A stretch of DNA of 61,118 bases from a virus (taxonomy: Duplodnaviria; Caudoviricetes), in IMG/VR virus record IMGVR_UViG_3300045141_000235, positions 1 to 61,118 of that record; one strand, 5' to 3'. This document shows, in pieces, positions 1-60,113 of this stretch. The position numbers and the translations under genes are program-made. Each line of letters starts with the position of its first letter. Position 1 is the first letter of the stretch. A model generated the notes under the pieces. That model worked only from the letters and a program-made list of their open reading frames with translations, was not told the DNA's origin and searched no databases.

Positions 1-127
1 CGCATCCCGGAGAACGACGTGGCCTTAAAGGCGCTTTGCATGGCACTCCAGAGCATCAGCGCCGGCGCCGGCTTTGGGGGGTATCCGGGGGCCACTACCG
101 CCCTCTGGACGCGGCTGGCGGCGGCAA
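1..127. repeat. Terminal direct repeat, copy 1 (circular assembly overlap)
   Basis: Bases 1..127 are identical to 60992..61118, and an ORF reads in frame across the junction. Confidence 0.97.
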
Positions 128-1710
128 TCACGGCTCTGTTCGTCGATCCCGGGTTTCGTTTGTCCCAGGAGGGCTTTGACCAACTGGCAGCTCACCGCTC
201 GACGATGGAGGCCGTCTTCAAGGCGTCGATCTTCGGTGGCTCTGATCACCTATTCGCGTTGGTTCAGGAGGAGGAGGGGGTGAACAAGTACCTGCTGCTC
301 TTTCCCACGGACTCGAAGCTCGACCTTGATCTTGCCGAGATATTCACTCGCAACCCGCAGGAGATGGTAGGGCTGTATCTGTCGATGCTGGGCTACGCGC
401 AGATATTCACCCCGGAGGCTGATGCCCGCCGCAATCTTCTGATCTCGCTCGCACCAGCATTCGAGGATGTGGACCTGCCGCTGTGCCTGATTAACGCGCT
501 GTGCGCAGCCTATATGCACGTCAGTTACTCAGACTGCGAGGGCAAGCACGAACCTAAGCGCGTGCTTCACGCGATGATGGCGCGGCTTATGCAAAAGCAC
601 GTGAAGGTTCTGCAATTCCCGGTCCGGGAAGAGATCGCCCGGCCGACCATCCTGATTGTGTTCGACTGGTGGTGGTCGAGGCACGCAATGTATCGGTGCT
701 ATTCGCAGTCGATTTTGCAGTTAAAGCGCGACTTCCGGCTAATCGGGCTTGCCCGTAATGTCGTGACCGATGAGCCATCCCGCGCCATGTTCGATCAGTG
801 GATCGGGATTGCCGAGGATAAATTCATCCTGGCAGATGTTGCCCAGGAGATTGCGAACGCCGCTCCCGATATCATCTACTACCCCTCGATCGGCATGTCG
901 AGCCTGACAATTAGCCTCGCGTCGCTGCGTCTCGCCCCTCTGCAGGTGATGAGCTACGGGCACCCGGCGACCACGAATTCCCCTGAGATCGACTACGGGA
1001 TCATTGAGAACGACATGGGGGTGCAGGCGTGTTTCTCGGAGAAGTTGCAGCGCATTCCCTCGAACACCGTGCGCTACGTGCCATTTGCACCGGTTACCGC
1101 TCGCCACCGTGTACGGGTGAACCCGGAGACCATCAAGATTGCGGTGTGCGCCATGCAGGTGAAAGTGGGCTGGCCCTTTATACGGGCGATGCAGCAGGTG
1201 CAAAAGCGAGCGCGCCGGCGGGTTGAGTTTCATTTCTTCTGCGCCGCCCACGGCGTTGGGTTATTCAGCATGGCGAACCAGTTGAAGGGGTTGCTTGAGA
1301 ACACCATGATCTACGAGCGGGCGGACTATCAGGAGTTGATGGAGTGGGTCGCCGGTTGCGACATCTGCCTGTTTTCCTTCCCGTTCGGGGGCACCAATTC
1401 CGTGATCGACGCCATGCTGCTGGGCATCCCGTTTATCACCCTGGAGGGCTTGGAGCCGCACGCGCGAACCGATGCGATGTTAATCCGGCGGGCGGGGCTG
1501 CCGCAGTCGATGATTGCCTTGACCCAGGCCGAGTATGTCACTGAGGTCACGCGCCTGGTGGACGAGGACGACCGGCGCCACCGCTATGCGCGCTTGATCC
1601 GCCGGGTTGACGTCGCCCGCACCTTCTTCGAGCCTGACCACACCGAGGCGTTTGTCAATGCCTTCAGCACGATCTACCGGCGTCATGCCAAACAGGAGGC
1701 CGCAGCTTGA
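1..1710 (+). CDS. HMW1C/NGT-family (GT41) protein N-glycosyltransferase; true start probably GTG 60908 across the circular junction (about 597 aa)
   Basis: Colinear motifs as recalled for HMW1C/ApNGT: TRLAAAITALFVDP, AYMHVSYS..KHEPKR, HAMYR, YYPSIGM..LRLAPLQ...GHPATT, FPFGGTNSVID, GLPQSMIA. Confidence 0.9.
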   Translation, partial: RIPENDVALKALCMALQSISAGAGFGGYPGATTALWTRLAAAITALFVDPGFRLSQEGFDQLAAHRSTMEAVFKASIFGGSDHLFALVQEEEGVNKYLLLFPTDSKLDLDLAEIFTRNPQEMVGLYLSMLGYAQIFTPEADARRNLLISLAPAFEDVDLPLCLINALCAAYMHVSYSDCEGKHEPKRVLHAMMARLMQKHVKVLQFPVREEIARPTILIVFDWWWSRHAMYRCYSQSILQLKRDFRLIGLARNVVTDEPSRAMFDQWIGIAEDKFILADVAQEIANAAPDIIYYPSIGMSSLTISLASLRLAPLQVMSYGHPATTNSPEIDYGIIENDMGVQACFSEKLQRIPSNTVRYVPFAPVTARHRVRVNPETIKIAVCAMQVKVGWPFIRAMQQVQKRARRRVEFHFFCAAHGVGLFSMANQLKGLLENTMIYERADYQELMEWVAGCDICLFSFPFGGTNSVIDAMLLGIPFITLEGLEPHARTDAMLIRRAGLPQSMIALTQAEYVTEVTRLVDEDDRRHRYARLIRRVDVARTFFEPDHTEAFVNAFSTIYRRHAKQEAAA

Positions 1711-2438
1711 GCACCTTCCTTCAACTGGTCAACAAGCTATCCTCAGAATCCGGCATCTCGGGTGCGCCCGCGGCCATCACGAGCGTGATTGGGCAAACCG
1801 GCATGGCGCTGCGCATGGTGAACTGGACCATTGCCTCCTATCGGGAGATTCAGGGTCGGTCCGCGCAATGGCGGTGGCTTCGCAGCACGTTCTCGTTTCC
1901 GACGGTCGCTGGCACCGACACCTACGCTTATAACGCGGCGGGCTGCATTGACACGCGCTTGGGCGCGCCGATCACGAGGTTTCGCGGCTGGATACCGTTC
2001 GGGGAGCGCGGGGAGTCCAATATCAGCCGGTATCTCACCGCGGGCGGGGTGCCGGGCCAGATGTGGATGACTTTCCTGCCCTGGTCGATCTTCCGGGCGA
2101 TGTACAAGTTCGGCCCCATGCAATTGAACCAGTCGACCATTATTCACGTGACCATCACCCCGCAGAACCAGTTGATGATCGGGCCCAACCCCAATGAAGT
2201 GTTCACCGTGCTGGGCGAGTATCAGATGGCGGCGCAGATATTGGCGGCTGATGGCGATGTGCCGGAGATGCCGGAGGATTACCACGATCTGATTTTCTAC
2301 CGCGCGATGGAGAAGTACGGGCGGTTCCAGGCGGCGCCGGAGGTCGTGGCGCGCGGGGAGACTGAAGGAGGGCGCATTATGCGCGCTTTGGAACAGGGGC
2401 AACTCCCGCAACTTTTGTTAGCTGCGCCGCTTGCTTGA
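1707..2438 (+). CDS. Head-tail adaptor / tail tubular protein A-like
   Basis: STFLQLVN N-terminus, 'D.PEMPEDYHDLI.Y.A' C-terminal motif, and position upstream of the nozzle gene. Confidence 0.7.
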   Translation: MSTFLQLVNKLSSESGISGAPAAITSVIGQTGMALRMVNWTIASYREIQGRSAQWRWLRSTFSFPTVAGTDTYAYNAAGCIDTRLGAPITRFRGWIPFGERGESNISRYLTAGGVPGQMWMTFLPWSIFRAMYKFGPMQLNQSTIIHVTITPQNQLMIGPNPNEVFTVLGEYQMAAQILAADGDVPEMPEDYHDLIFYRAMEKYGRFQAAPEVVARGETEGGRIMRALEQGQLPQLLLAAPLA

Positions 2439-2468
2439 TGAATACGCTTCGGTTAGATACTCGGCGGC

Positions 2469-2499
2469 TTGACACCTGCGCGAGGCGGTGCGATATACT
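2469..2499 (+). promoter_or_regulatory. Sigma70-like promoter of the HTH moron
   Basis: TTGACA-19 bp-TATACT just after the adaptor stop codon; the spacer is long. Confidence 0.45.
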
Positions 2500-2659
2500 G
2501 CCTGCGTTCGAAATTAATTCGGACGTGCGTGTGACAACGCGAAAATGGAGTAACGTAGCAAGTCCTTTGCAGGGTGGGTCTCGGTTCGGTTTGCGTTGCT
2601 GCGTTCGCTCCTCCCGATTGTCACCCGTTTCCCGTTCTGCAAAGGGCTTCTTTTTGTCC

Positions 2660-3145
2660 ATGCGGCTGCAAAACGCCGTTTTCGCCAATCCGCCAACCAA
2701 AGGCGGCGAACTCTTCCTGCTTGTCAACTTAGCCAGATATGCTGCCGACGATGGCAGTCGTGTATATCCATCTGTCTCACGGTTGATGAAAGAAACAGCG
2801 CAGTGCAGGAGAGCCATAGAAACGCAACTCGCGAGTCTAGTAGCCAAAGGCATTATTGAAATTGTCAGGCGGCAGACTGCCAAACCAACTGAATATCGGA
2901 TTTGTGCAGAAAACATATACACAGACCCCGCATGTGGTGCGGGGTCAAAAAAACAGACCCCGCATTTGGTGCCAAAAGACCCCGCACCTAGTGCCAAAAC
3001 CCCCGCATTGAATGCGGACGATTCATTAATAGATTCGTTATATATCCATCAAAACCGGGTTGAGAAAAACAAAACCGTCAAAACCGCAGCGGGCGACGCG
3101 GCGCTCAGGAGCATGAAAGAGTTGCTGGGAAAATCTGATGGCTAA
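2660..3145 (+). CDS. Winged-HTH protein resembling the N-terminus of phage replication initiators (short, 161 aa)
   Basis: LLVNLARYAADDG.RVYPSVSRLMKET....RAI...LASL..KGIIEI pattern followed by iteron-like repeats; likely start ATG 2660. Confidence 0.7.
   Translation: MRLQNAVFANPPTKGGELFLLVNLARYAADDGSRVYPSVSRLMKETAQCRRAIETQLASLVAKGIIEIVRRQTAKPTEYRICAENIYTDPACGAGSKKQTPHLVPKDPAPSAKTPALNADDSLIDSLYIHQNRVEKNKTVKTAAGDAALRSMKELLGKSDG
2921..3016 (+). repeat. Four iteron-like repeats CCCCGCAnnnnnTGC
   Basis: ccccgcatgtggtgc, ccccgcatttggtgc, ccccgcacctagtgc and ccccgcattgaatgc, separated by A-rich spacers. Confidence 0.75.
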
Positions 3146-5225
3146 TAGCAACCTTCGAGCCCGGCGCGACGCAGCCTCAATGCCACCGGTAAGGGTGATC
3201 CCCGACGCCTTCCTGCTTAACGGCGGATTGGACGTGATGACCCCGCCGTTTGAGCTTAAATCCGGCTTCGCGCGCCTCGCCCAGAACTTCGAGTGCTCCA
3301 TCTTCGGGGGCTACCGCAGGATCGCGGGCTACGAGCGGATCGATGGCCGGGCAAGCCCGTCGGATGCGCAGTATTCAATCCTGCCCGTCACCCTTGTCAC
3401 CGGCGGGGCGGTGGGCAACACCCTCACGGGGGCGACTTCGGGCGCAACCGGGGTAATCATCGCGATCACCACAACGTCTTTCGTGCTGACCCGGACCGTG
3501 GGCGTCTTCCAGGCCGAGAACCTGAATGTCGGCGCCGGCACCATCGCGGTGTCGACCGCGCCAGCGACCCTGAATGCGGCGCAAAGCCCGCTCTTACATG
3601 CCCAGTACAACAACCTGGCGGCCGACGCGTACCGGGCGTTAATCGGGGCCGTGCCGGGTTCGGGCAAGATTCTGGGTGTTTTCTACTACAACGACGTGCT
3701 CTTTGCCTTTCGCAATAACGCGGGCGGCACGGCGGCAGCCCTGTATAAGTCCAGTCCTGCCGGCTGGATTGCCGTCCCCCTGGGCCGCGAGCTTAACTTC
3801 ACCTCGGGCGGCACCTTTGTGCTGGTCGAAGGCCAAACCGTAACCGGTGCGACATCTGGGGCAACCGCAGTAATCACCAGGGTTGCGCTCGAGACCGGGA
3901 CCTTCGCCGCTGGCACCGCGGCCGGGCATATCACCTTTGGCTCCCAGACCGGAACCTTCGTGGCCGAGAACCTGAATGTGGGGGCGAACCTGAACGTCGC
4001 CTCGATTGCCGGCAACGGGAGTGCGATCACGCAGCTCCCGGACGGGCGCTACGAATTCATCCTCTACAACTTCACCGGCGGGCTATCCACCAAGCGGGTG
4101 TATGGCTGCGATGGGGTCAACCGAGCATTCGAGTTCGATGGCACATCGTTTGTCCCAATCAACACCGGCATGGTGATCGACAAGCCCTCGCACATCGAGG
4201 GGCACCTGTATCACCTGTTCCTGTCGTTCTTCGGCTCGGTGCAGCATTCGGCTCCCGGCTTCCCGTTTCAATGGTCTGCCGTGGTGGGGGCAGGAGAGCT
4301 GGCGATGGGGGAGGCCGTCACCGGGTTTGCCTCGCAATCGGCAAGCTCGACGGCGGGCGCACTGGCGATATTCACCGTAGGCAAGCTCTCCATGCTCTAC
4401 GGCACGGGGGCCGCCGACTGGAACCTCTTGCCTTACCGGGATGAAATTGGTGCTTTTCCTTACACCATGCAGAACCTCGCCCAGACCATGTTCCTGGACC
4501 TGCAGGGGGTCACGGATCTGGTGACAACGCAGCGATTCGGAAATTTCGTCTACGCGGTCTTGTCCAACCGGGTGAAGTCGATCATCACGTCCTGGCGCTC
4601 GGCTGCGATTGCCTCATCGGTTTCACGGGACTTGTCGCAATACCGGCTGTTTTTCACGAACAACTTCGCCCTCTACTTCACGGTCGTTGCCGGCAAGGTG
4701 ATCGGCGTCATGCCGTGCCTGTATTCCCATACCGTGCGCTGTGCCTGGTCGGGCAGAACGCTGGCCGGGGTTGAGCGCAACTTCTTCGGATCGGACAACG
4801 GGTTCGTGTTCGAGATGGACAAGGGCACGAGCTTCGATGGCGAGCCAATCGAGGCGTTTTTCAATCTCGCGTACAACTTCTCGGGCGGCGTGCGGTTAAT
4901 CAAACGCTACCGCGGGGGTGCCCTTGAAATCTCAGGACCCGGATATGCATCATTCAACTTTGGCTACGCGCTGGGCTACAGCTTGCCAGAGATCATTCAG
5001 CCCACAACGGAGCGGATCACATCCAACTTCTCCGCTGTGTTCTGGGACCAGTTCGTGTGGGATGCCTTCTTCTGGGATGGCGTGACCCTTGGGCCTTCAA
5101 CGATTGAAATTGACGGCGCTGCCGAAAACATCTCGCTTGCCGTTCGCTGTGTGAGCGATTTTTATCAACCCTTCACGATCTCGGCTGCGGTGATTAACTA
5201 CAGCCCGCGTCGGCAGATGCGCTGA
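3138..5225 (+). CDS. Tail nozzle / tail tubular protein B-like (packaged-DNA stabilisation)
   Basis: 695 aa, beta-rich, N-terminal GGLD..TP...NFEC...GGYRRI.GYER motif; lies between adaptor and fibre. Confidence 0.7.
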   Translation: MANSNLRARRDAASMPPVRVIPDAFLLNGGLDVMTPPFELKSGFARLAQNFECSIFGGYRRIAGYERIDGRASPSDAQYSILPVTLVTGGAVGNTLTGATSGATGVIIAITTTSFVLTRTVGVFQAENLNVGAGTIAVSTAPATLNAAQSPLLHAQYNNLAADAYRALIGAVPGSGKILGVFYYNDVLFAFRNNAGGTAAALYKSSPAGWIAVPLGRELNFTSGGTFVLVEGQTVTGATSGATAVITRVALETGTFAAGTAAGHITFGSQTGTFVAENLNVGANLNVASIAGNGSAITQLPDGRYEFILYNFTGGLSTKRVYGCDGVNRAFEFDGTSFVPINTGMVIDKPSHIEGHLYHLFLSFFGSVQHSAPGFPFQWSAVVGAGELAMGEAVTGFASQSASSTAGALAIFTVGKLSMLYGTGAADWNLLPYRDEIGAFPYTMQNLAQTMFLDLQGVTDLVTTQRFGNFVYAVLSNRVKSIITSWRSAAIASSVSRDLSQYRLFFTNNFALYFTVVAGKVIGVMPCLYSHTVRCAWSGRTLAGVERNFFGSDNGFVFEMDKGTSFDGEPIEAFFNLAYNFSGGVRLIKRYRGGALEISGPGYASFNFGYALGYSLPEIIQPTTERITSNFSAVFWDQFVWDAFFWDGVTLGPSTIEIDGAAENISLAVRCVSDFYQPFTISAAVINYSPRRQMR

Positions 5226-5239
5226 CAGGACTTTGACCC

Positions 5240-7018
5240 ATGCCCAACGATTTTTACGCAGTCACCGGTTCTCCCGGAACATCTTCATTCGGCGCCTCAG
5301 CAGTCATTCGCGCTGAGTTTGTCGCAATCCAGTCGGCATTCGACAAGCTGCCGTCTTTGATCGGGAACGCTGGCAAGTTTCTGGCCGTCAATCCGGGTGA
5401 GACGGCTCTTATCGCGGTCGCGGTCACGGGATCCGGCTCTATTGTTCTGGCGGCCGGATCGACGCTGGATTCTCCCATCCTGATAACCCCGCAGTTGGGC
5501 ACACCTGTCTCCGGGAATCTCGTAAATGCGGTTGGATTGCCGATTGCTACTGGTGTGAGCGGCTTGGGCGCTGGGATTGCAACTTTCCTCGGTGCGCCAT
5601 CGAGTGCGAATCTCCTCTCGGCGGTGTCTGATGAGACGGGCAGCGGGGCGCTCGTATTCGCCAATTCACCGACCTTGATCGCGCCAGTGCTCGGCACGCC
5701 GGCATCTGGCAACCTAGTGAACTGCACGGGCTTCCCGGCTATGGCGGTCGGCAGCATCACGGGTTTAGGCACGGGTGTCGCCACTGCCCTTGCCATCAAC
5801 ACCGGCACCGCTGGTTCTCATGTCGTGCAGGGTGGAGCACTCGGCACACCGTCCTCTGGCGTTGGCACCAACATCACAGGTCTGCCGGTTAGCACTGGCA
5901 TCACCGGCCTTGGCACCGGAGTCGCCACCGCCCTTGCGGTCAATGTAGGCACAGCAGGCTCGTTTCTGACTGCTGCCGCGCCGAACCGCAACTTCATCGA
6001 CAACGGCGCGATGATGATAGATCAGAGGTTTGCGGGGGCAGTGCAGATTATAGCAGTTAACTCAAACTCCTTAGACCGATGGATTGCACTGTCTGATGTA
6101 ACATCCAAGTATTCTATTCAGCGAGTAGTTGATGCCCCCGCTGGCTTTCTATACAGCGTCAAGTTTACCGTTTTAGCGCAATACTCTCCCGGTGTGGCGG
6201 AGCGATTTGTATGCGAGCAGTCAATGGAAGGGCCAGATGCTATCCCGCTTGCGCTTGGCATTGCAGGTGCTGCAACTGTAACAATATCATTTTGGGCAAA
6301 GGCGAGCGTTGTCGGTATCTACTCCTTCAATATTTGCAATGGTGCAAATAGTAGATCATATACGTTTACCCAAACACTGACGACGGCGTTCGTTCGCTAC
6401 AGCAAGACTATCGTGCTTGATACGACTGGCACATGGCTAACGGCAATTGGAACTACCGGGTTACGATTGGGAATTGATCTTGGTAGTGGGGCAAACTTTA
6501 CCGGCACAGCAGATGTATGGACAGCGGGGCAATTGCGCTCCGCGACGGGTGCGCTGAAGTTCGTTAACCAAGTCGCAGGTTCAACCCTCAACATCACCGG
6601 CGTTCAGCTTGAGCTTGGCACGGTTGCAACGAGCTTCGAGCACCGTCCGTTCCAGCAGGAGTTTGCCCGCGTCCAGCGGCACTTCTGCAAGTCGTTCGCT
6701 TATGCAACGGCGCCGGCGCAGAACGTGGGGCCTGGCACTGGTGAGCATGTTTTTACTGCTGGGCGTGCGGGTGCTCTTGCACTGCTTAGTAACAGTGTAT
6801 ATTTTCCCGTAACTATGGCATCAGCGCCGACTATTACGCTGTACAACGCAAGTGCGGCAAATGCACAGGCACGGAATACCACCACTGCCACGGACTGCAC
6901 GGCATCCTCGGGGACATTTATAACTGACCACTCGTTTCTTGTTAGCGCTACTGGCCCTGTTGGAGGGTTGGTTGGTGACTTTATTACTGTCCACTGGACA
7001 GCCTCCACAGGATTTTAA
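5240..7018 (+). CDS. Tail fibre / receptor-binding protein
   Basis: N-terminal anchor (IRAEFVAIQSAFDKLP), GLGTGVATALA and LGTPxSG repeats, and a C-terminal RN.I.NG.M.IDQR...GVQLELGTVATSFEHR domain. Confidence 0.8.
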   Translation: MPNDFYAVTGSPGTSSFGASAVIRAEFVAIQSAFDKLPSLIGNAGKFLAVNPGETALIAVAVTGSGSIVLAAGSTLDSPILITPQLGTPVSGNLVNAVGLPIATGVSGLGAGIATFLGAPSSANLLSAVSDETGSGALVFANSPTLIAPVLGTPASGNLVNCTGFPAMAVGSITGLGTGVATALAINTGTAGSHVVQGGALGTPSSGVGTNITGLPVSTGITGLGTGVATALAVNVGTAGSFLTAAAPNRNFIDNGAMMIDQRFAGAVQIIAVNSNSLDRWIALSDVTSKYSIQRVVDAPAGFLYSVKFTVLAQYSPGVAERFVCEQSMEGPDAIPLALGIAGAATVTISFWAKASVVGIYSFNICNGANSRSYTFTQTLTTAFVRYSKTIVLDTTGTWLTAIGTTGLRLGIDLGSGANFTGTADVWTAGQLRSATGALKFVNQVAGSTLNITGVQLELGTVATSFEHRPFQQEFARVQRHFCKSFAYATAPAQNVGPGTGEHVFTAGRAGALALLSNSVYFPVTMASAPTITLYNASAANAQARNTTTATDCTASSGTFITDHSFLVSATGPVGGLVGDFITVHWTASTGF

Positions 7019-38386: not shown

Positions 38387-38398
38387 TGAATTTCTCAT

Positions 38399-38492: not shown

Positions 38493-38507
38493 TTTACAGG
38501 AGGGGTG

Positions 38508-41799: not shown

Positions 41800-41871
41800 C
41801 GCGCCGTGGGAAAGTAGCAATCCGCCTGGCTCATAACCAGGAGATCGTCTGTGCAATTCAGACCGGCGCAA
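41800..41871 (+). tRNA. tRNA-Met (CAT), initiator-like, atypical
   Basis: C1:A72 mismatch, gcgccg/cggcgc acceptor, cctgg-CTCATAA-ccagg anticodon arm; T-loop TGCAATT; followed by CCC rather than CCA. Confidence 0.75.
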
Positions 41872-41898
41872 CCCCTCTAAAAACCCGCAGGAGGCTCA

Positions 41899-42411
41899 AT
41901 GCCGACCCTTCAATACTACGAACGCTCGACAGGGGTACGCGTACACGCCACCGCCAACCTCGTAGGCAATGACATCACCTTGGGCGAGAACTGCCGCATT
42001 GATGGCAACGTCACGATTACCGGTAAAGTCGCAATCGGGCGCAATTGTCATATCGGAACGGGGGTGAGTATTTTGGGCGGGCATGGCGTGACGATTGGAG
42101 ACCATTGCGGCATAAGTCCTGGGGTTAAGATTTTCACCGGCACGATTGATCCTGATTGCGGGCTGCTTCTGCTACATGCCGAAAGTGAACTCGAATCCGA
42201 GGGAAGGGTGGGACCAGTGCAGATCGGAAATTACGTCACCATCGGCGCGAACTCGGTGGTGCTGCCAGGCGTGACAATAGAGGACCAGGTAATTGTCGGC
42301 GCTCTCTCACTCGTGAGGGGTGGTCACATTGGGGCCGGGTATATTTACGGCGGCAATCCGCTGCGGACCTTGGGCTTGAGGACGCCGTTGAAGTATCAGC
42401 AGACCGCGTAA
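41899..42411 (+). CDS. Hexapeptide-repeat acyltransferase (VioB-like sugar N-acyltransferase)
   Basis: Left-handed beta-helix repeats LGENCRID, IGRNCHIG, IGDHCGIS, IGANSVVLPGVTI, YGGNP. Confidence 0.8.
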   Translation: MPTLQYYERSTGVRVHATANLVGNDITLGENCRIDGNVTITGKVAIGRNCHIGTGVSILGGHGVTIGDHCGISPGVKIFTGTIDPDCGLLLLHAESELESEGRVGPVQIGNYVTIGANSVVLPGVTIEDQVIVGALSLVRGGHIGAGYIYGGNPLRTLGLRTPLKYQQTA

Positions 42412-42414: not shown

Positions 42415-42642
42415 ATGCCGGAGACGCTGAAACAGGTGATGGGCGTCATTATGGCAAGCCCTAACGGGCGAGATGACTGGTTGCCGGTCAGGTACGAGGA
42501 CGTGCCAGATTTTGTGAAACACCCGGACTGCATGGCACGCCTGGTCGAGGGGGATATGGTGATGGGCCCCAAGCTGGGACCCAAAGGCTCGGCATGGTTC
42601 CGGCTTGAAACCATCAGGGGCGAGCAGGACCCCGTACATTGA
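42415..42642 (+). CDS. Hypothetical protein between the sugar-modifying genes
   Basis: 75-aa coupled ORF. Confidence 0.5.
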   Translation: MPETLKQVMGVIMASPNGRDDWLPVRYEDVPDFVKHPDCMARLVEGDMVMGPKLGPKGSAWFRLETIRGEQDPVH

Positions 42643-43670
42643 TTCGTTTATTGGTGCCCTTGATTCCGCCCATCGAGGCGGCAATCCCCTACTACCGGAA
42701 GTCCGAAGAAGCGCGCCATTACAGTAATTTCGGCCCCTGCGTACTCGAACTTGAGCGCCGCCTATCCGAGCACTTCGCCGGCGCCTACATCACCACGACG
42801 TCGAGCTGCACGAGCGGGCTGGAAATCGTCTACACGCTGGCCCATATCTCGGGCTACGAGAAGATTGAGCTGCCGGCCCTGACATACCCAGCCACCTGGA
42901 TGGCAGCCACACGCTCCGGGCTTGAGATATTGCCGATCGACGTCGATCCTGACACCTGGATTGCGCCGGGAGTAGCCGGGTTCGGGTTGCCGAGCTACGC
43001 GCCGATTGTGGACGCGGCCGGCGCGTTCGGTGAGCAGCGGGTGCCGATCATCACGGAGGGGATGACGGCGGTATTCAGCGCGCACTGTACCAAGCCATTG
43101 GGCGTTGGTGAGGCGGGCTGGATTGTTACGTGGGACCAGGGGGCGTCAGAAGAATACCGCGCGATGTCGCAGTTTGGCATCAACGGGCAGACCGGGTTCG
43201 GGCTTAATGCCAAGATGAGCGAGCTGCACGCTGCGATGGCGCTCGCGGCCCTGGACGCCTGGCCTGGGACGCGGGCGCGCTACCTGCAGCTCTTCGACTG
43301 GTACGACAAATACCTGCCGGCGGGCGTGACCCCGCAGAAGCGCCCGCGAGGGGTTTACCCGATTCTGGCGGTAAAGCTGCCACAGATGCCTGGCGGCGCG
43401 CTGGCGGCGGTCGCGGCAATGCGGGAGCGCGGCGTCGAGTGCCGGCAGTGGTATGTGCCAACATGCGACCGGCTGCCGCTATTCATCCCCAAACAACCCA
43501 AGGAAGGGGCGCTGGGAGGGCACAGGCGGGCGCAGGCGAAGCTGCCGCACCTGCCGGTCACTGAGGTCCTGGCGGAGAGCCTAATCGGCCTCCCCTGGCA
43601 TTTGTGGCTTTCTGAGTCTGACGTGAAGCAGGTATGCGAGGCGCTTGGCGCCGTGATCGAAGTTCGTTAA
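42639..43670 (+). CDS. DegT/DnrJ/EryC1/StrS PLP aminotransferase (VioA-like)
   Basis: YSNFGP...LE, SCTSGL, P.LTYPAT, DAAGAFG, FSAHCTKPLGVGE.G (PLP lysine), GLNAKMSELHAA. Confidence 0.9.
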   Translation: MIRLLVPLIPPIEAAIPYYRKSEEARHYSNFGPCVLELERRLSEHFAGAYITTTSSCTSGLEIVYTLAHISGYEKIELPALTYPATWMAATRSGLEILPIDVDPDTWIAPGVAGFGLPSYAPIVDAAGAFGEQRVPIITEGMTAVFSAHCTKPLGVGEAGWIVTWDQGASEEYRAMSQFGINGQTGFGLNAKMSELHAAMALAALDAWPGTRARYLQLFDWYDKYLPAGVTPQKRPRGVYPILAVKLPQMPGGALAAVAAMRERGVECRQWYVPTCDRLPLFIPKQPKEGALGGHRRAQAKLPHLPVTEVLAESLIGLPWHLWLSESDVKQVCEALGAVIEVR

Positions 43671-45931: not shown

Positions 45932-47113
45932 TTGACATCCTCCCCGCCTTAAAGGACGGGGATTCCTACAGCTAGACGCGAATGTCCTCGCGCGAAAATG
46001 AGCTTGGCTGAATTGACATCACGATCATGAGAGACGCCGCATTCAGTGCAAGTCCAATTTCTTATTCGCAAGTCTGCGATACCTTTAGGGCCACCGAGCG
46101 AACCGCACTCGGAGCAGACTTGGGTCGTGAAGCGTTCGTTGACTTCCTCGAACCATACGCGGTGCGCGATCGCTTTATAGGCGAGCATGATTCTGAATGC
46201 ACTCCACCCCGCATCCAAGACCGATTTCGCCATCTTGGTTTTTGCGAGGTCGGAGGCATTCACGTTGCCAACGAAGATTACCGCGTTCTCGCGAACGAGG
46301 CGGGTGGAAAGTTTATGCAAATGGTCTTTCCTGCGGTACTTGATTTTGGCGTGTATCGCTTTGATACGCCGCTTCTTGTGGGCGCGCTGCGCGATAGCCA
46401 GCTTGGGTTGAAGATCGCGGTAGAACCGCTGGGCTTCAATCTTCTCCCCATTACTGAACGTGGCGAAGTCCTTGATGCCGAGGTCTATGCCGATGGAACC
46501 GGTACCTTCGGATGCAGCGGGTTGATCGACTTCGCAATTTAAGTTCACGAACCAGTGGCCTTGCGCATTTTGAGCAAAGTTGCCAGCTTTGATCTTGCCT
46601 TCGATGGGTCGCGACAGCCAGAAGCGGAAGGTGTGACCGTAGTAATTGACAGAATCGTCAGTGATCTTGACACCGGGCGCCTTGAACGGAATCCAACCAA
46701 GTGATTTCTTTCCACGCCAGCGCAAACGCCGCTTCCTGAATTGCTGGCGGCGGGTAGCGTATTCCTCGCAGACAGCCTGAATGCTCTGGGCGTTGATGCC
46801 GAGTTCTTTGGAGCAACCAGCGGTGAGTTTAATCAGATCGAAACCGGAAGGCCAACGCTTTGCCCACCGCAGCGCATGATGCTGTGTTTCGTTACAGAAG
46901 TTCCAGACCATGTTGACGGCGCGCGCCATCTCTCCAAGCGCATCGGCACAGTTGGAGTCTTTAACCCGGAAGGAAAAGGTGCGAATCATGTTTAACCATT
47001 CCGCGAAATCGCGAGCAAGAACGGTGAAGTGTCAGAATCGTAGCACAGCTTCGCTGTGCGCGCTGAAAAGGAAACAATAATGGCAGACTCGGTAACTTCT
47101 CAGACCATTTTCA
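45932..47113 (-). mobile_element. IS200/IS605-family TnpB-only element (left boundary uncertain)
   Basis: Right end on - strand ...ggaatccccgtcctttaaggcggggaggatgTCAA (hairpin + TCAA); hairpin gcacagcgaagctgtgc upstream of tnpB; no tnpA. Confidence 0.75.
45949..46989 (-). CDS. tnpB: RNA-guided endonuclease TnpB
   Basis: RuvC-I GIDLG, zinc finger CSECG...CTECG, RuvC-III HDRDVNSA; the canonical RuvC-II Glu position reads IFVGNV, with a candidate alternative Glu in VNERFTTQ. Confidence 0.93.
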   Translation of the reverse strand: MIRTFSFRVKDSNCADALGEMARAVNMVWNFCNETQHHALRWAKRWPSGFDLIKLTAGCSKELGINAQSIQAVCEEYATRRQQFRKRRLRWRGKKSLGWIPFKAPGVKITDDSVNYYGHTFRFWLSRPIEGKIKAGNFAQNAQGHWFVNLNCEVDQPAASEGTGSIGIDLGIKDFATFSNGEKIEAQRFYRDLQPKLAIAQRAHKKRRIKAIHAKIKYRRKDHLHKLSTRLVRENAVIFVGNVNASDLAKTKMAKSVLDAGWSAFRIMLAYKAIAHRVWFEEVNERFTTQVCSECGSLGGPKGIADLRIRNWTCTECGVSHDRDVNSAKLIFARGHSRLAVGIPVL

Positions 47114-52215: not shown

Positions 52216-52392
52216 ATGCCATGGCAGGCTGGAGATGCGCGCTCGCACACGCACAAGGCGAAGTCGGCTGCTCAACAGACGCAATGGGCGAAGGTCGCCA
52301 ACGCGATACTGGCGAGAACCGGCGATGATGCCAAGGCCATTCGGATCGCCAACGCGGGGCTGCTTCATAGTGCGATGAAGAGATCGAGATGA
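52216..52392 (+). CDS. Small basic protein upstream of portal
   Basis: MPW...A..HT.KA......QWAKVAN..L...GDD..AIRIANA; coupled to portal. Confidence 0.6.
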   Translation: MPWQAGDARSHTHKAKSAAQQTQWAKVANAILARTGDDAKAIRIANAGLLHSAMKRSR

Positions 52393-54770
52393 CCATAGGC
52401 ACTGGCCCGCAGACGAGTGACCAAGCAGCAGCGGACCAGTTGGGCCCGGAAGATCAACGAAGTCTGGATGACGCACGCTCGGAGCGCTTAAACGCCCTCG
52501 GCTTGGCTCTTGCCAAAAAGCGTGGCGATGCGATTCAGGGGCGCCAGCAGTGCGGGATTGAATCGGTCTGGATCGGAGACGAGGAGCACTACCAGGGCGT
52601 TGATGACGCCAATCGCGCCGAGCACATAAACGCCTGGCACACCAAGCCTCCGGGCATGGTGACACCCCCGCCGGCCGGCACCACGCGCTCGACCGTGTTC
52701 CCGAACGTAACCCGCCCGTATTGCGACGCCGCAGCCGCCCGCATTGCCGACATGCTGCTGCCGAACGACGACAGAAACTGGTCTCTGGAGCCAACCCCGG
52801 TGCCGGAGTTGGCAGAGATCGCGGCAGGCCAGATTCCCGACTGGATGCAGCAGGAGATGCAGGCCGAGCCCGGTGTCGACGCGGCCCGGATGCAGCAGAT
52901 GCAGGCCGCCGTCATTGACCAGGCGAAGAAGATTGTCGATGAGGCCAAAAAGATGGCCGACAAGGCCCAGGAGCGCATCTCCGACTGGCAGATTGAAGGC
53001 CAGTGGCATGCCGAAGTGCGCCGGGTGATCGAGGATGCCGCGCGCTGCGGCTCTGGCGTTCTGAAAGGCCCGGTACCGGTCAAACGCAAGGTCGTGATTC
53101 TCGAGGACGTCGCGGGCGATGGGCAGGCTGCCCCGCATCCCAACGTGTTCCAGCGCATCGTGACCGGTATCCGCACGATGCTGACCAATGCGAAGATCCA
53201 GACCCAGAAGCAGTTGATCGTGAAAGAGGAGATCAAACCCGCCTCCAAGTGGGTGTCGTTCTGGAACTTCTTCCCGGACCCGGCCTGTGGCGACAACCTG
53301 CATAACGGATCGTTCACCTTCGAGAAAGATTACCTCGCGCCCAAGCAGCTCAAAGACTTGAAAGGCACCCCTGGCTACATCGACAACCAGATCGAAGCCT
53401 GTCTGGAAGAAGGCCCGATGCGGGCGGTGGCGCCCAGCAAGGACAATCCGAACGATTACGCGAACAAAAGCGGGGAGGGCGACACCCGGTTTGAGATTTG
53501 GTACTACCACGGCAGCCTCGACAAGGAAGAACTGGCCGCGGCCGGTTGCGACTGCCCGGAAGGCGAAGACGTGCCACTGATCCCGGCCCAGGTAACGATG
53601 GTGAATAACCGCGTGATCCGGGCGAGCTTAAACCCGCTCGACTCAGGCGACTATCCCTACGACATCATGCCATGGCAGCGCCAGCCGGGCTCCCCCTGGG
53701 GCATCGGGGTTGCGCGCCAGGGCAGAACGCCGCAGCGTATCGTGACGGCCGCTACGCGAAACCTGATGGACAACGGAGGGTTGTCGGCAGGGCCGCAGAT
53801 CATCCTGAAGAACGGGCTTATCGTACCAGCGGACGGCAACTACACGATCACGCCCAGGAAGGTCTGGTATGCGGGCGAGGACTCCGACATCGAGGATGTG
53901 AGCAAAGCCATCACGTTCGTCGATGTACCATCCATGCAGGCCGAGCTGATGGAGATCATTCAGTTCGGCTTGAAGATGATGGAGGATTCAACCGGCCTGC
54001 CCATGCTGCTTCAGGGGCAGCAGGGCAAGGCTCCCGACACCGTGGGCGGCATGACGCTCCTGAACAACAACGCGAGTGCGGTGCTGCGGCGCCTGGCACG
54101 CACGTTCGATGATTGCGTGACCGAGCCGCACATCCGGCGTTACTACACCTGGCTTCTGCAGTACGGTGAGGACGACGAGAAGGGCGACTCCCAGATTGAT
54201 GCGCGCGGCTCATCTGCGCTGGTCGAGCGCGACTTACAGGCAACGGAAATTGCGCAAATGGCGGCGGTAGTCACCAATCCGATCTTCGGGCTCGACCCGA
54301 AGAAGTGGGCGCGCGAGTTGTTGAAGTCACGGAAGTTCGACTCCCGGCTCTTCGAGTATGACGATCCGCAATGGCAGAAGATTGTCGAGCAGATGGGTCA
54401 GAAGCCGCAGGACCCGAGAGAAGCCATCGCGCAGTTGAAGGCCCAAACGGATGAGAAGCTATTGCAGTTGACGCAGACATTCGAGGCTACGGAGAACGAG
54501 AAAGAGCGCGAGAACAAGGTCGTGATCGAAATGATCAACGAGAAAATCTCGAATGCGGAATTGGATTCAGTGGAGCGCCAGGTGCTTGAGAAATTAAAGT
54601 CGGATCTTGCTTCGGTAACTCTCAAACTTGGCGTACAGCGTGAGATATCGGCTGCGACGCTGGCTCTCGATGCTCACAAGCACCACACGCTGCCGGCGCT
54701 GAAGGCTGTGACCGCACCGCCTAGCGAGCCCGGCGGACGTGCCCAGCCTGGGCGGAGTTTTCAGAGTTAG
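52389..54770 (+). CDS. Portal protein
   Basis: 793 aa; N.TRPYC..A.ARI.D.L.P, G.GVLKGP, WNFFPDP, WG.GV...Q, T.GGM.LL..NA; position before scaffold and capsid. Confidence 0.85.
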   Translation: MTIGTGPQTSDQAAADQLGPEDQRSLDDARSERLNALGLALAKKRGDAIQGRQQCGIESVWIGDEEHYQGVDDANRAEHINAWHTKPPGMVTPPPAGTTRSTVFPNVTRPYCDAAAARIADMLLPNDDRNWSLEPTPVPELAEIAAGQIPDWMQQEMQAEPGVDAARMQQMQAAVIDQAKKIVDEAKKMADKAQERISDWQIEGQWHAEVRRVIEDAARCGSGVLKGPVPVKRKVVILEDVAGDGQAAPHPNVFQRIVTGIRTMLTNAKIQTQKQLIVKEEIKPASKWVSFWNFFPDPACGDNLHNGSFTFEKDYLAPKQLKDLKGTPGYIDNQIEACLEEGPMRAVAPSKDNPNDYANKSGEGDTRFEIWYYHGSLDKEELAAAGCDCPEGEDVPLIPAQVTMVNNRVIRASLNPLDSGDYPYDIMPWQRQPGSPWGIGVARQGRTPQRIVTAATRNLMDNGGLSAGPQIILKNGLIVPADGNYTITPRKVWYAGEDSDIEDVSKAITFVDVPSMQAELMEIIQFGLKMMEDSTGLPMLLQGQQGKAPDTVGGMTLLNNNASAVLRRLARTFDDCVTEPHIRRYYTWLLQYGEDDEKGDSQIDARGSSALVERDLQATEIAQMAAVVTNPIFGLDPKKWARELLKSRKFDSRLFEYDDPQWQKIVEQMGQKPQDPREAIAQLKAQTDEKLLQLTQTFEATENEKERENKVVIEMINEKISNAELDSVERQVLEKLKSDLASVTLKLGVQREISAATLALDAHKHHTLPALKAVTAPPSEPGGRAQPGRSFQS

Positions 54771-55030: not shown

Positions 55031-57007
55031 ATGAGTTTCAATAGAACAATTGTCGGTGATTGCCTAAAAATACTGCCGACTTTGGACACTGGCAGCGTTC
55101 AATGTTGTGTTACGAGTCCTCCGTACTGGGGTTTAAGGAATTACGGAGTTTCTGGTCAGTTGGGGCTGGAAAGCACTCCCGAGGAGTACGTCGAGAAGAT
55201 AGTCACCGTGTTCCGCGAGGTGCGGCGCGTACTGCGTGACGACGGAACATTGTGGCTTAATTTGGGGGATTCGTACTCCCGTGGAGAACGAGTCAACAAT
55301 CCTAACGACCACAAACGCGGGACTGGGTTTCACGAAGAAATTACGGAAGCTGGCGGATATGCTCAGGCAGGAAAAGCGACCGGATTAGAGTCAAAGCAGT
55401 TAATCGGCGTCCCGTGGCGGGTGGCGTTTGCTCTGCAAGCCGACGGCTGGCATTTGCGCCAGGACATCATTTGGTGCCTCTCTGGTGGCGCTGCGGTGTA
55501 CGCGCGCACGCAGAAGGGCGATATGCCTATCATGGTTAAAGACCTTGTACGCCTTCGCCCGGATACCGTGCAACTCTGGAACGGCACGAAGTGGACACAA
55601 GCGCTTGGGTGGTCGCGCTCGGCCGATACCGACGGCGCGATTGAACTGGAACTTCGCAGCGGAGAGCGCGTCGGTTGTACGCGAGGGCATCAATGGCCAA
55701 CGAAGCGCGGGTTGTTGCGCGCAGATGAATTACAAGCCGGCGACGTGATCGACACAACACGCTTGCCTGCCCCGGATACACCGGCTGAACCAGACGCGCT
55801 CGGACTGGATGTGGCATGGCTCTGCGGCCTATACCTTGCCGAAGGTTCAATGAGCGGAGATACGGTGCAGATTGCCGGGCACGCGAACGAAACAGGAACA
55901 CGGCTTGAGAAAATAGAGCGCGTAGCTGCGTCTTTTCACGGCAGCGTTAATGCTTACGTCAGCGCGAACGGAAACGGCGCGACGATCAACATGGAAGGCC
56001 CAATCATAGCCGCTGTTATTCGTGCCTACGTCCACGGCGACAACGCGCACAACAAGGGATTGAAGGTGCGCGTATGGCAGCGCAGCGATGTGTGGCTGAG
56101 GGCATTTTTGGAAGGATACCTTGCCGGGGATGGGCACCATGACGTTGCGAATGATCGCTGGCGCCTTGGATTTTGCCGTAACGACCGGCTTGCCGATGAC
56201 TTCAGAACGCTCGCGGCCCGCATGGGTCTACCGATACGCCTTGCGGCAGTCACAGTAACAGGGTTTGGTCGGGAGTGGCCGGCGTATCGCGGAGACATCC
56301 GCTTGCTGGCATCAACGCACCATAATGCGCGCGACGCCGGCGAGATTGTCACTATCCGCGCGAGTCGTGCGCGACAGTTTTGGGATATTGGAGTGGCCGA
56401 CGATCCGCACACGTTCGCGCTCGCATCAGGTGTGCTTACGCACAATTCGAAGCCGAACCCGATGCCAGAGTCGGTCAAAGACCGTTGCACGAAATCGCAC
56501 GAGTACATTTTCTTGTTGACAAAGTCTGAGCGTTATTACTTCGATCAGGAGTCCATTAGCGAGAAGTGCAGTCCGAACACGCACGCACGTCTCTCTCAGG
56601 ATGTTCAAAATCAGGTTGGCAGCACCAGAGTTCCCGGCAAAACAAACGGCAATATGAAGGCTGTCGGACGTAAATTTGACCCCGGCGCGAACAATAAAAA
56701 CAATCCGAGCTTTGACACAGCAATGGCTATCATGCCGGAAACTCGCAATAAGCGCTCGGTCTGGACCGTCACAACGCAGGGATTCGATGGAGCGCATTTT
56801 GCGACGTTTCCGCCTGCACTGATCGAGCCTTGCATCTTAGGCGGCAGCAAAGTCGGTGACGTGGTACTAGATCCGTTCGCAGGCAGCGGTACGACCGGCA
56901 GTGTGGCCGAAGCGCTCGGCCGGCAATGGCTGCTGATCGAGTTGAACGAAGAATACGCCAAACTGTGCGCCGACCGAACACGGCAAATGGGCATAGTGAT
57001 GGCCTGA
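55031..57007 (+). CDS. Beta-class N4/N6 DNA methyltransferase interrupted by an intein
   Basis: VTSPPYWGLR (motif IV), HFATFP, VLDPFAGSGTT (motif I). Confidence 0.92.
   Translation: MSFNRTIVGDCLKILPTLDTGSVQCCVTSPPYWGLRNYGVSGQLGLESTPEEYVEKIVTVFREVRRVLRDDGTLWLNLGDSYSRGERVNNPNDHKRGTGFHEEITEAGGYAQAGKATGLESKQLIGVPWRVAFALQADGWHLRQDIIWCLSGGAAVYARTQKGDMPIMVKDLVRLRPDTVQLWNGTKWTQALGWSRSADTDGAIELELRSGERVGCTRGHQWPTKRGLLRADELQAGDVIDTTRLPAPDTPAEPDALGLDVAWLCGLYLAEGSMSGDTVQIAGHANETGTRLEKIERVAASFHGSVNAYVSANGNGATINMEGPIIAAVIRAYVHGDNAHNKGLKVRVWQRSDVWLRAFLEGYLAGDGHHDVANDRWRLGFCRNDRLADDFRTLAARMGLPIRLAAVTVTGFGREWPAYRGDIRLLASTHHNARDAGEIVTIRASRARQFWDIGVADDPHTFALASGVLTHNSKPNPMPESVKDRCTKSHEYIFLLTKSERYYFDQESISEKCSPNTHARLSQDVQNQVGSTRVPGKTNGNMKAVGRKFDPGANNKNNPSFDTAMAIMPETRNKRSVWTVTTQGFDGAHFATFPPALIEPCILGGSKVGDVVLDPFAGSGTTGSVAEALGRQWLLIELNEEYAKLCADRTRQMGIVMA
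55475..56446 (+). mobile_element. Intein (324 aa) with LAGLIDADG homing endonuclease
   Basis: QDIIW|CLSGG ... LASGVLTHN|SKPNP; T.GH.W block B; WLCGLYLAEGS and FLEGYLAGDG motifs. Confidence 0.92.
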
Positions 57008-59307: not shown

Positions 59308-59535
59308 ATGGCAGAATCAATCGCAAGACGTGTCGGCGGTATGAAGATTGGCAAGATGTCGCAGAAAGAGCTTTTGAAAATTCTGCTGTCGCTTCAGTCT
59401 GATCTTGCGAACTTCAGAACTACGGCTAACGCCATCGTTCTGGATCTTCGCGCGCTCGCCAACAACACGGGCTCCGCCAACAACACGGTCCAGATCACCG
59501 CAGCGAACGTAGCCGCGATGAATACGACCGTATAG
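59308..59535 (+). CDS. Small putative capsid decoration protein with three N-X-T sequons
   Basis: RBS aaggag; C-terminus ANNTGSANNTVQITAANVAAMNTTV. Confidence 0.6.
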   Translation: MAESIARRVGGMKIGKMSQKELLKILLSLQSDLANFRTTANAIVLDLRALANNTGSANNTVQITAANVAAMNTTV

Positions 59536-59582: not shown

Positions 59583-60050
59583 ATGGAAGCTAACAGAGTA
59601 GGTGATCATGGTGGAAACGTCACCATGTCGCGGGCGGGCCTGGCGCTGGGTGCCACCGCCGGCACGGTGAATATCGCCAGCAATGTGCAGTTCTGCATTG
59701 ATGGCATATTCGCCACGGTCAACGCGGTCAACAACGCGGCTTTCAGCAACAATCACCTGTCGCTCGCTGCCGGCTGCGCGTGCCTGTTCGGCGTGTGGGT
59801 GACGGCCGCAGGCGTGGTGAGCACAACGCAGGGCAAGGTCGTGGATACGGCAAGCCTCGCCACGGCAGGGGGCAGCAAGGTGCTCCAGATGCCGGATGTG
59901 GTGGCGAACTCGGCACTGCTCGGTCTCATCAAGGTCGTAACTGCGGGCACGGCGGTATTCGTTCCGGGCACCACCAACCTGAACGCGACGAATGTCACGG
60001 CCACGTACTACGACACGACCGACATGCCAACCAAGCCGTTTCTGATCTGA
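59583..60050 (+). CDS. Putative capsid decoration / minor head protein
   Basis: RBS aaggag; beta-rich, FVPGTT.L motif; sequons NVT, NAT, NVT. Confidence 0.65.
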   Translation: MEANRVGDHGGNVTMSRAGLALGATAGTVNIASNVQFCIDGIFATVNAVNNAAFSNNHLSLAAGCACLFGVWVTAAGVVSTTQGKVVDTASLATAGGSKVLQMPDVVANSALLGLIKVVTAGTAVFVPGTTNLNATNVTATYYDTTDMPTKPFLI

Positions 60051-60076: not shown

Positions 60077-60103
60077 GCGCCCCTTAATCGGGGCGCTTTT
60101 TTT
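60077..60103 (+). terminator. Rho-independent terminator after the head genes
   Basis: gcgcccc-ttaatc-ggggcgc followed by T7. Confidence 0.8.
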
Positions 60104-60113
60104 GGAGGTTCCA

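Follow-up and report, generated by a model that had tools for sequence, protein, structure and literature searches.

A phage-encoded HMW1C-like N-glycosyltransferase in the virion module of a tailed phage, with candidate acceptors among its own accessory virion proteins

The tailed-phage genome IMGVR_UViG_3300045141_000235 (Duplodnaviria; Caudoviricetes), analysed here over its full 61,118 nucleotides and called the window below, carries a gene for an N-glycosyltransferase (NGT) of the HMW1C type, glycosyltransferase family 41 (GT41), between its head genes and its head-tail adaptor gene. The homology and predicted fold of the enzyme, its conserved nucleotide-binding residues, the conserved position of its gene and the co-variation of acceptor motifs with its presence are all observed. 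Taken together, these observations make it plausible, and we lean towards the view, that the phage N-glycosylates its own virion, with two small proteins of the head module, p155 and p75, as candidate acceptors.

A full-length NGT-type gene spans the genome junction

As an IMG/VR virus record, the window carries direct terminal repeats and has a CheckV completeness of 100%. Its bases 1–127 are an identical copy of 60992–61118, so the genome is either a 60,991-bp circle or a terminally redundant unit. The NGT frame starts with a GTG at 60908, 8 nt past the TAG of the upstream gene p161, runs across the repeat and ends with a TGA at 1708–1710, and its two parts of 28 and 569 residues together give a protein of 597 amino acids (aa). 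An earlier note, made from the sequence alone, had described a full-length protein of about 597 aa across the circular junction, and this description is confirmed; a protein on another contig (P0001) likewise has 597 aa and shares 566 of 569 residues (99%) with the window NGT. The location given there, between the head genes and the adaptor gene with the NGT stop overlapping the adaptor start, is equally correct: the adaptor starts with a TTG at 1707 that overlaps the NGT stop (TTGA), and an AGGAGG at 1693–1698 precedes it. The GC content at third codon positions is 0.78 in NGT, the same as in the adjacent structural genes.

Profile and structure comparisons bear out the family assignment. Specifically, the window NGT scores 41.6 bits against Pfam HMW1C_N (PF18071; cut-off 27) and 280.9 bits against the NCBIfam model NGTferase (NF049992; E 2e-83, model positions 61–598 of 614), the latter below the equivalog cut-off of 1000. 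In a phmmer search of the PDB, AaNGT (8p0q/8p0o) is matched at 1.9e-66 and ApNGT (3q3e) at 5e-65, and the alignment is colinear, with query residues 36–548 corresponding to AaNGT 65–602. The AlphaFold2 (AF2) model of the protein has a predicted local distance difference test score (pLDDT) of 92.1 and a predicted template modelling score (pTM) of 0.91, and superposes on AaNGT 8p0o with a Z score of 46.3 and a root-mean-square deviation of 2.3 Å over 578 of the 597 residues. NGT structures reach Z 45–46 at 27% identity, whereas O-GlcNAc transferases (OGTs) and SPY reach only Z 26–33. The architecture is full-length, with an N-terminal all-alpha domain and two Rossmann-like GT-B lobes.

Functional residues were mapped with HMMER alignments and with a MAFFT alignment of the window NGT and 116 homologues, of which 37 belong to its own clade and 79 do not. 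In ApNGT, according to excerpts of PMC10466321, uridine diphosphate (UDP) is contacted by Lys441, His495, Tyr501, Asn521 and Asp525. Lys441 and Asp525 are present in all 37 clade members and all 79 other homologues, Asn521 in all 37 and in 78 of the 79, and the window NGT has each of the three. The Gly of the GHPAT motif, reported to touch the acceptor Asn in AaNGT, is likewise found in 37/37, in 79/79 and in the window NGT. The equivalents of His495 and Tyr501 are Arg and Leu in the window NGT, Tyr501 being kept in 34 of the 37 clade members, and Ala or Val aligns near Gln469 of ApNGT. Because the three nucleotide-binding residues are invariant across 37 members that have diverged to 42% identity, selection appears to have maintained catalysis. 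The catalytic core looks intact, and the gene encodes a genuine full-length GT41 enzyme of the NGT type that is probably active.

Within a phage subclade, the virion module stably includes the gene

A tblastn search with the window NGT gave no match in 50,697 GenBank phage records (from which records of the window's own genome were possibly left out), and PHROGs holds no family for the protein. A literature search, which worked on titles and abstract openings and left subscription journals largely uncovered, likewise yielded no account of a phage-encoded NGT. Within this literature and these records, the earlier impression that no NGT-type pathway has been described in a tailed phage holds. 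In a large protein collection, the window NGT belongs to a tight clade of 37 proteins with 42–64% identity and lengths of 576–609 aa, many of them encoded on contigs of 30–68 kb. In 185,579 species-representative genomes, 41% identity is attained by a single contig, the 19-kb locus L011, which was binned with a Sedimentisphaerales metagenome-assembled genome (MAG), possibly as a binning artefact; the remaining matches are at most 33% identical and lie mostly in MAGs of Alpha- and Betaproteobacteria. A tree of 62 homologues separates the nine rows for which phage synteny is proven from two NGT-like genes that adjoin DegT genes, with 96% support in the Shimodaira–Hasegawa-like approximate likelihood-ratio test (SH-aLRT); in it, all 40 sampled homologues from outside the clade are grouped together (94% SH-aLRT), away from the clade rows.

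The gene order p155, p161, NGT, adaptor, p695 recurs, as far as the fragments reach, in 15 further loci whose NGTs are 36–53% identical to that of the window. These comprise L004–L007 from IMG/VR, L011, and ten short metagenome contigs (L091–L099 and L102). Relatives were collected by scanning IMG/VR with an alignment of the major capsid protein (MCP), and the best 80 of 212 were kept. Classification of 95 loci gave 18 with an NGT-like match (16 of the head-module type, the other two being L100 and L101), 52 NGT-negative loci in which p161 and the adaptor are present, and 25 that were too short. NGT lies between p161 and the adaptor in none of the 52 NGT-negative loci, and in most of them the adaptor comes right after p161. 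A search that had the window as positive control found no NGT anywhere in the records of nine NGT-negative relatives, six of which are at least 90% complete. In the MCP tree, NGT-positive phages occur in two places: one group consists of the window, L004, L005 and three loci assigned to neither class (88% support), and the other, of L011 and L191, is sister (85%) to an NGT-negative group. No adhesin or transporter family was found among the window proteins scanned, and the neighbours of NGT are phage head, adaptor and tail genes. In sum, NGT belongs stably to the virion module of a phage subclade.

The junction of p161 and the adaptor also receives other genes. Relatives carry inserted blocks of 4.1 kb and 6.3 kb at this site, and two NGT-negative loci hold there what, from their sequences, are other candidate protein-modifying genes, namely one for an MptE-like/DUF115 protein (L195:14841–15686; 57 bits) and a stretch with a weak GT2 match and an S-adenosylmethionine-dependent methyltransferase (L182:14018–15282). 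The DUF115 family includes the Maf flagellin glycosyltransferases. The junction thus fits a hot spot for virion-surface or virion-modifying accessories.

Sequon motifs in p155 and p75 co-vary with the enzyme

For p155, N-x-[ST] motifs were scored in a 16-residue loop segment of 34 distinct complete sequences. The C-terminal segment, where conservation is best, reads G-T-T-N-[LF]-N-A-T-N-[VI]-[TN]-[AT]-T in NGT-positive phages and G-T-T-x-[LF]-D-A-[AST]-[GD]-[VI]-T-[ED]-T in NGT-negative ones; between the two, a pair of N-x-T motifs arises via Asp/Gly-to-Asn and Ala/Ser-to-Thr changes. All 13 NGT-positive sequences have at least one motif in the loop (10 have two), as compared with 3 of 12 NGT-negative sequences (1 with two) and 3 of 9 from loci assigned to neither class, an association with NGT that gives a Fisher p of 1e-4, uncorrected for kinship. 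Asn makes up 8.8% of p155 in NGT-positive loci and 4.0% in NGT-negative ones. The p155 of L011 belongs to the NGT-negative subfamily and the MCP of this locus is sister to those of NGT-negative phages, yet one of its p155 copies reads NATNVT and the other DATNVT. Tandem duplication of p155 is seen in the NGT-positive loci L005, L007, L011 and L095, and the loop motifs are kept in both copies.

In the AF2 model (pLDDT 87.5, pTM 0.83), p155 is a beta-rich protein, with N134 part of a loop and N137 located at the start or edge of the last long strand. Foldseek gave no match for this model in the PDB at E ≤ 0.001 (best, Mtd at 0.14), and its only matches in BFVD were an uncharacterised homologue and, weakly, domains of fibres or receptor-binding proteins. 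A structural alignment against representatives returned as its top ten phage fibres, 'shoulder' domains of receptor-binding proteins and TssK (Z 4.4–6.1), with Mtd (Z 6.1), the HFTV1 tail fibre (5.2) and SPP1 gp22 (5.0) among the top scores. We take p155 to be, probably, a trimeric surface accessory protein, and the position of its gene after that of the MCP fits a head fibre or decoration. A complex prediction for NGT and p155 scored 0.00 and, having been run without controls, counts neither for nor against binding.

A profile built from five p75 sequences matches all five NGT-positive loci that cover the interval. It also matches two loci inside the NGT-positive clade and L199, all three assigned to neither class, and, weakly (E 6e-7), 1 of the 52 NGT-negative loci. 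The p75 tail of the window reads A-N-N-T-G-S-A-N-N-T-V, and in two distant homologues the tail is Asp-rich, of the type D-A-D-G-G-V-T-G-T-D. In p695, two N-F-[ST] columns are weakly enriched in NGT-positive loci (0.60 vs 0.12 and 0.80 vs 0.15). A phylogenetically paired test offered two independent contrasts, both in the expected direction. The comparison between phages suggests p155 and p75 as the likeliest Asn acceptors, which are the same two proteins that the earlier note had singled out.

A sugar aminotransferase and an acyltransferase accompany the enzyme

Two genes of the window, at 41899–42411 and 42639–43670, encode putative enzymes of sugar tailoring. The latter scores 118 bits against Pfam DegT_DnrJ_EryC1 (cut-off 19.8) and the former 71 bits against Hexapep (cut-off 27), so the two families named earlier for this pair are recovered. 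The more specific VioA- and VioB-like labels given with them are not borne out at the equivalog level. For DegT the best NCBIfam model is DesI (98 bits vs 650), models of the WecE/VioA type give 19–38 bits, and the best PDB match is 2po3 (2e-19). The acyltransferase reaches 55.5 bits vs 160.8 for TIGR03570 (NeuD/PglB/VioB) and matches 3vbi best in the PDB (1.9e-14), which we take to be an N-acyltransferase of amino-dideoxyglucose; VioB 7txp follows at 1.3e-5. Neither a second glycosyltransferase nor a sugar dehydratase or nucleotidyltransferase was found among the window proteins scanned.

NGT, DegT and acyltransferase genes, for whose joint presence the earlier note had suggested a survey of phage genomes, do co-occur. 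DegT is present in 0 of 10 records of NGT-negative relatives (seven at least 90% complete) and, in a Pfam search with G000 as positive control, in 0 of 4; the hexapeptide acyltransferase is present in 0 of 4 complete NGT-negative relatives. In the phage-like metagenome contigs L101 (1102–4072) and L103 (8171–11941), DegT homologues (48% and 40% identity, respectively) lie directly upstream of NGT-like genes that are 31% identical to the window NGT, keep Asp215 (ApNGT numbering) and belong to another clade. L103 belongs to a contig of 64.7 kb, on which thymidylate synthase and tail genes also occur. The IMG/VR contig L008 (35.8 kb), also phage-like, has tail genes of the GTA/phiJL001 type and, at positions 1–4054, KAS III-like, SDR and DUF2514 genes downstream of an NGT-like gene (37% identity). 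These three neighbourhoods indicate that a recurrent partnership between NGT-like and sugar-tailoring genes in phages is likely. A 2-oxoglutarate-dioxygenase-like gene also stands just upstream in L101.

A proposed pathway and its alternatives

We propose that NGT would be expressed late, at the same time as the proteins of the head and the head-tail joint, given that its gene begins 8 nt after p161 and ends within the adaptor start. As a soluble enzyme it would act in the cytoplasm, before or during assembly, and transfer sugar from a nucleotide sugar to the Asn of exposed N-x-T motifs on the phage's own accessory virion proteins. Its main targets would be N134 and N137 of the p155 loop and the Asn-rich C-terminal tail of p75, and p695 might be a further one. 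By the default of the family, the donor would be UDP-glucose. In this proposal we infer the activity, the linkage to Asn, the targets, the donor and the benefit to the phage. More tentatively, DegT and the acyltransferase may convert a nucleoside diphosphate (NDP)-4-keto-6-deoxyhexose of the host into an N-acylated amino-deoxyhexose, which would serve as donor or be added later; we regard this as possible, with less confidence than glycosylation of the virion itself. That all these parts make up a self-contained cytoplasmic system, independent of oligosaccharyltransferase (OST), by which the phage N-glycosylates its own particle is unlikely in so complete a form. Such a system would combine a remodelled NGT that has lost Asp215 and has no Gln469 equivalent, an N-acylated amino-dideoxyhexose from DegT and the acyltransferase as the Asn-linked or capping sugar, and acceptor motifs gained through Asp/Gly-to-Asn replacements in exposed stretches of two accessory proteins associated with the capsid. 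If it were real, it would be the first natural N-glycosylated virion of a tailed phage and would include an NGT with a donor other than glucose.

Several observations weigh against N-glycosylation of the virion. In the studied enzymes, as given in excerpts of PMC10507012, the acceptor peptide is read by Arg177, His214 and Asp215, and R177A and D215A inactivate AaNGT on peptide. The window NGT has Ala, Cys and Ala at these three positions, and Asp215 is kept in none of the 37 clade members (Gly in 21, Ser in 11, then Ala, Asn, Thr, Gln and Met) vs 66 of the 79 other homologues; Arg177 is rare beyond the studied enzymes (4 of 79). The part of the enzyme that reads the classical sequon therefore looks rebuilt in the clade, and with Asp215 replaced by Gly, Ser or Ala and the acceptor groove altered, the accepted motif may be broader than N-x-S/T. 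The colinear HMW1C/ApNGT motifs of the earlier note consequently stand for the colinear core, the nucleotide-binding residues and GHPAT, and fall short at Asp215; and where that note would have taken missing residues as a refutation, those that bind the nucleotide are invariant in 37/37 and the reader of the +2 position is gone. Because of the replaced Asp215 and a score below the curated cut-off, we file the protein as a divergent, phage-specific HMW1C-like branch and not as an equivalog of UDP-glucose:protein N-glucosyltransferase.

On the acceptor side, the 74 predicted proteins of the window contain 74 N-x-S/T motifs vs 71.6 expected from composition-preserving shuffles, which is no enrichment. 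p75 and p155 hold three motifs each, vs 1.28 and 2.19 expected, a count not above chance (p 0.11 and 0.39, respectively). The sequon richness that had first drawn attention to these two proteins is thus explained by composition, and that argument was dropped in favour of the comparison between phages. Here too there are discordant cases: 3 of the 12 NGT-negative p155 sequences have a loop sequon, the p155 of NGT-positive L004 lacks the NAT/NVT pair, and no NGT-specific sequon columns were found in MCP, p161, the adaptor or the portal. The best structural Z of p155 (6.1) lies below 8, under which matches are weak by the calibration of the tool. There are only two independent NGT-positive lineages or pairs, which puts significance out of reach, and p75, p155 and NGT lie within 2 kb and could therefore travel together by recombination without a functional link. 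Unrelated cargo occurs at the p161–adaptor junction, namely a pectate-lyase-like fibre in L220 and a concanavalin-like (lectin-like) protein in L197, so position alone is no proof of function. DegT and the acyltransferase are 17 kb away from NGT, and their link to it is seen in one complete NGT-positive genome only.

Three other explanations have to be set against these data. An active enzyme might have targets outside the virion, either proteins of the host (surface adhesins, receptors, or factors of defence or translation) or phage proteins that are not structural, with its gene at a junction that tolerates cargo. The unrelated inserts at this junction in relatives (4.1 kb, 6.3 kb, pectate-lyase-like, lectin-like) agree with such a role, as do the phage-proteome sequon count, which equals expectation, and further host-directed enzymes of this genome, represented by a Fic domain and, within the polyvalent protein of 3993 aa, an ART domain. 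Known family members, moreover, modify bacterial adhesins (PMC3012730; PMC10507012). However, targets outside the virion would not account for the changes in the p155 loop and in p75 that accompany NGT in two lineages, and the divergence of NGT parallels that of the structural genes (41–53% identity across loci vs 64–72% for MCP), with translational coupling to the adaptor retained. We consider this explanation unlikely.

Alternatively, p155 and p75 may be modified on Ser/Thr, or on Asn outside N-x-S/T, with the conserved Asn residues serving as recognition elements. The clade-wide replacement of Asp215, set against its retention in most other homologues, and the changed Arg177 and His214 equivalents would suit such a transfer. 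The target segments are rich in Thr too, the Asn content of p155 in NGT-positive phages is twice that of NGT-negative relatives, well past two sequons, and OGTs of family GT41 use Ser/Thr. Excerpts of PMC10466321 describe ApNGT D215 variants with reduced activity, a relaxed +2 position and glycosylation of non-canonical motifs, but these variants still prefer N-W-T. What separates NGT-positive from NGT-negative phages is, however, a gain of Asn from Asp/Gly, Thr being mostly present in both, and the fold is far nearer to NGTs than to OGTs, which makes this second explanation quite improbable. We regard it as very improbable indeed that NGT is a catalytically dead relic or a non-enzymatic chaperone or assembly factor for the head-tail joint. 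The loss of Asp215 and the score far under the NCBIfam equivalog cut-off would agree with it, since D215A abolishes the activity of AaNGT on peptide (PMC10507012, excerpts) and D215A ApNGT is inactive on HMW1 (as cited in PMC10466321). Against it stand the tested nucleotide-binding residues, invariant despite the divergence of the clade, a full-length gene free of truncation, and the co-occurring sugar-tailoring genes. Taken together, the observation reported earlier is confirmed and its interpretation is partly supported: the view that NGT glycosylates the phage's own structural proteins gains from the motif co-variation in p155 and p75 and is held back by the two independent lineages on which this co-variation rests.

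Comparison with known glycosylation systems

Like HMW1C of H. influenzae, ApNGT of A. pleuropneumoniae and AaNGT of A. aphrophilus (GT41; 3q3e, 8j30, 8p0o/8p0q), the window NGT has a three-part architecture, the nucleotide-binding Lys, Asn and Asp, and GHPAT; like these enzymes it is soluble, and its candidate acceptors carry N-x-T. Unlike them, it is encoded in a phage virion module and not beside a two-partner-secreted or autotransporter adhesin, and its clade is without Asp215 (37/37), with changed equivalents of Arg177 and His214 and with Ala or Val near Gln469. The partner of ApNGT is an alpha-1,6-glucosyltransferase, whereas the window NGT is linked to genes for amino-sugar tailoring. 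The NGT-like genes of L101, L103 and L008 similarly combine phage GT41 enzymes with sugar-modifying partners (DegT in the first two, KAS III-like and SDR in the third), but they belong to other NGT clades and lie outside the head module, and those of L101 and L103 differ further in retaining Asp215.

Viruses that glycosylate their own particles are known from other groups. In the chlorovirus PBCV-1, virus-encoded cytoplasmic glycosyltransferases place Asn-linked glycans on the capsid protein outside the pathway of the endoplasmic reticulum (ER) and OST. The system proposed here would resemble it as virus-encoded Asn glycosylation outside ER/OST; PBCV-1 differs as a giant virus of eukaryotes that uses other enzymes and carries large, atypical glycans at sites that are not sequons. 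In mycobacteriophages, the virion linkage is O-glycosylation of C-terminal residues. Glycosyltransferases of the mycobacteriophages Che8, Corndog and Myrna modify the phages' own capsid and tail-tube proteins, with glycans on the particle surface (Freeman et al. 2023, cited in PMC12363180). As in these systems, the window glycosyltransferase has a genetic link to structural genes (seen in its position in 16 loci, the window included, and in the stop/start overlap). It differs from them in enzyme family and host group, theirs being actinobacteria, in that an Asn-directed GT41 enzyme is proposed, and in that the candidate targets are accessory proteins and not the major capsid protein. In a synthetic setting, an N-A-T tag was engineered into the coat protein of phage AP205 and was fully glucosylated by ApNGT on co-expression in E. 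coli, which did not block assembly (PMC6881330, excerpts). There, a bacterial enzyme met an inserted tag, whereas in the window enzyme and motifs are both natural to one phage lineage.

If confirmed, glycosylation of the virion by this enzyme would carry cytoplasmic N-glycosylation of the NGT type beyond bacterial adhesins to virus particles, and would mean that tailed phages of Gram-negative-type hosts decorate virions with Asn-linked sugars, beside the glycosylation known in mycobacteriophages. It would also provide a natural compact set of enzyme and acceptors: NGT itself, the beta-protein of 155 aa with its NATNVT loop, and the tailed protein of 75 aa. The NGT clade is a natural experiment on Asp215, the residue that engineers of ApNGT mutate to widen the range of acceptors, and may be of use in glycoengineering. 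Surface glycans could change adsorption, stability and recognition by host defences or antibodies.

Organisation of the genome

The features of the window are listed in Table 1.

Table 1. Coordinates of features in the 61,118-nt window.
Feature	Position	Strand	Remarks
NGT, 5' part	60908..61118	+	GTG start at 60908; 60992–61118 repeats bases 1–127
NGT, main part; HMW1C/NGT-like GT41 glycosyltransferase, 569 aa	1..1710	+	stop TGA 1708–1710
Terminal direct repeat, 127 nt	1..127	.	identical to 60992–61118; marks a complete circular or terminally redundant genome
SU10-type head-tail adaptor	1707..2438	+	Pfam 34 bits; TTG start overlaps NGT stop
Inserted helix-turn-helix (HTH) open reading frame (ORF)	2435..3145	+	HTH_36 winged-helix domain
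p695, conserved tail or nozzle-region protein	3138..5225	+	possible further acceptor
Fibre-like protein	5240..7018
Polyvalent protein, 3993 aa	13562..25543	+	domains given in the text
tRNA-Met	41800..41873	+	directly upstream of the sugar-tailoring genes
Left-handed beta-helix (hexapeptide) acyltransferase	41899..42411	+	Pfam Hexapep 71 bits
75-aa ORF between the two sugar genes	42415..42642	+	no family match
DegT/DnrJ/EryC1-family sugar aminotransferase	42639..43670	+	Pfam 118 bits
Small terminase	at 43713
Large terminase	at 44288
TnpB-like gene	45949..46989	-	OrfB_IS605 and Cas12f1-like TNB domain
SU10-type portal	52389..54770
DNA methyltransferase split by an intein-like insert with a weak LAGLIDADG match	55031..57007	+
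Putative scaffold	57132..58202
Major head protein (MCP)	58220..59266	+	PHROG 1357, 6.4e-50
p75, small helical protein with Asn-rich C-terminal tail	59308..59535	+	10.7% Asn; three N-x-T; candidate acceptor
p155, beta-rich accessory protein of the head module	59583..60050	+	loop NATNVT (N134, N137); best candidate acceptor
95-aa Ala/Glu-rich ORF	60102..60389	+	no family match
p161, conserved module gene directly upstream of NGT	60415..60900	+	in NGT-negative relatives usually followed directly by the adaptor

The HTH_36 ORF separates the adaptor gene from that of p695, two genes that are adjacent in relatives; its first approximately 80 codons do not look protein-like, and the true start may lie later. 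The methyltransferase is of the N6/N4 type and scores 155 bits against Pfam in two stretches around an intein-like insert. This insert has a weak LAGLIDADG match, starts with Cys after 'IIW' and ends with 'THN' before 'SKPNPMPES'. Between the large terminase and the portal region, the TnpB-like gene occupies the opposite strand. In the polyvalent protein, ART-PolyVal, RadC/JAB, PBECR5 nuclease, ddrB-ParB, LPD3 and DUF5710 domains were recognised.

In the region of lowest GC content (0.51), an HNH endonuclease, a tRNA-Leu(TAA) and a Fic/DOC-domain protein form a cluster (37835–38960 and 38399–38492). Four to five tandem copies of a 21-nt unit at 32534–32638, in or near a minus-strand gene for 495 aa, may be iterons or mark an origin. 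At 8721–8884, a 47-nt sequence occurs twice (85% identical, 117 nt apart) at the end and downstream of a gene for 315 aa (7890–8837).

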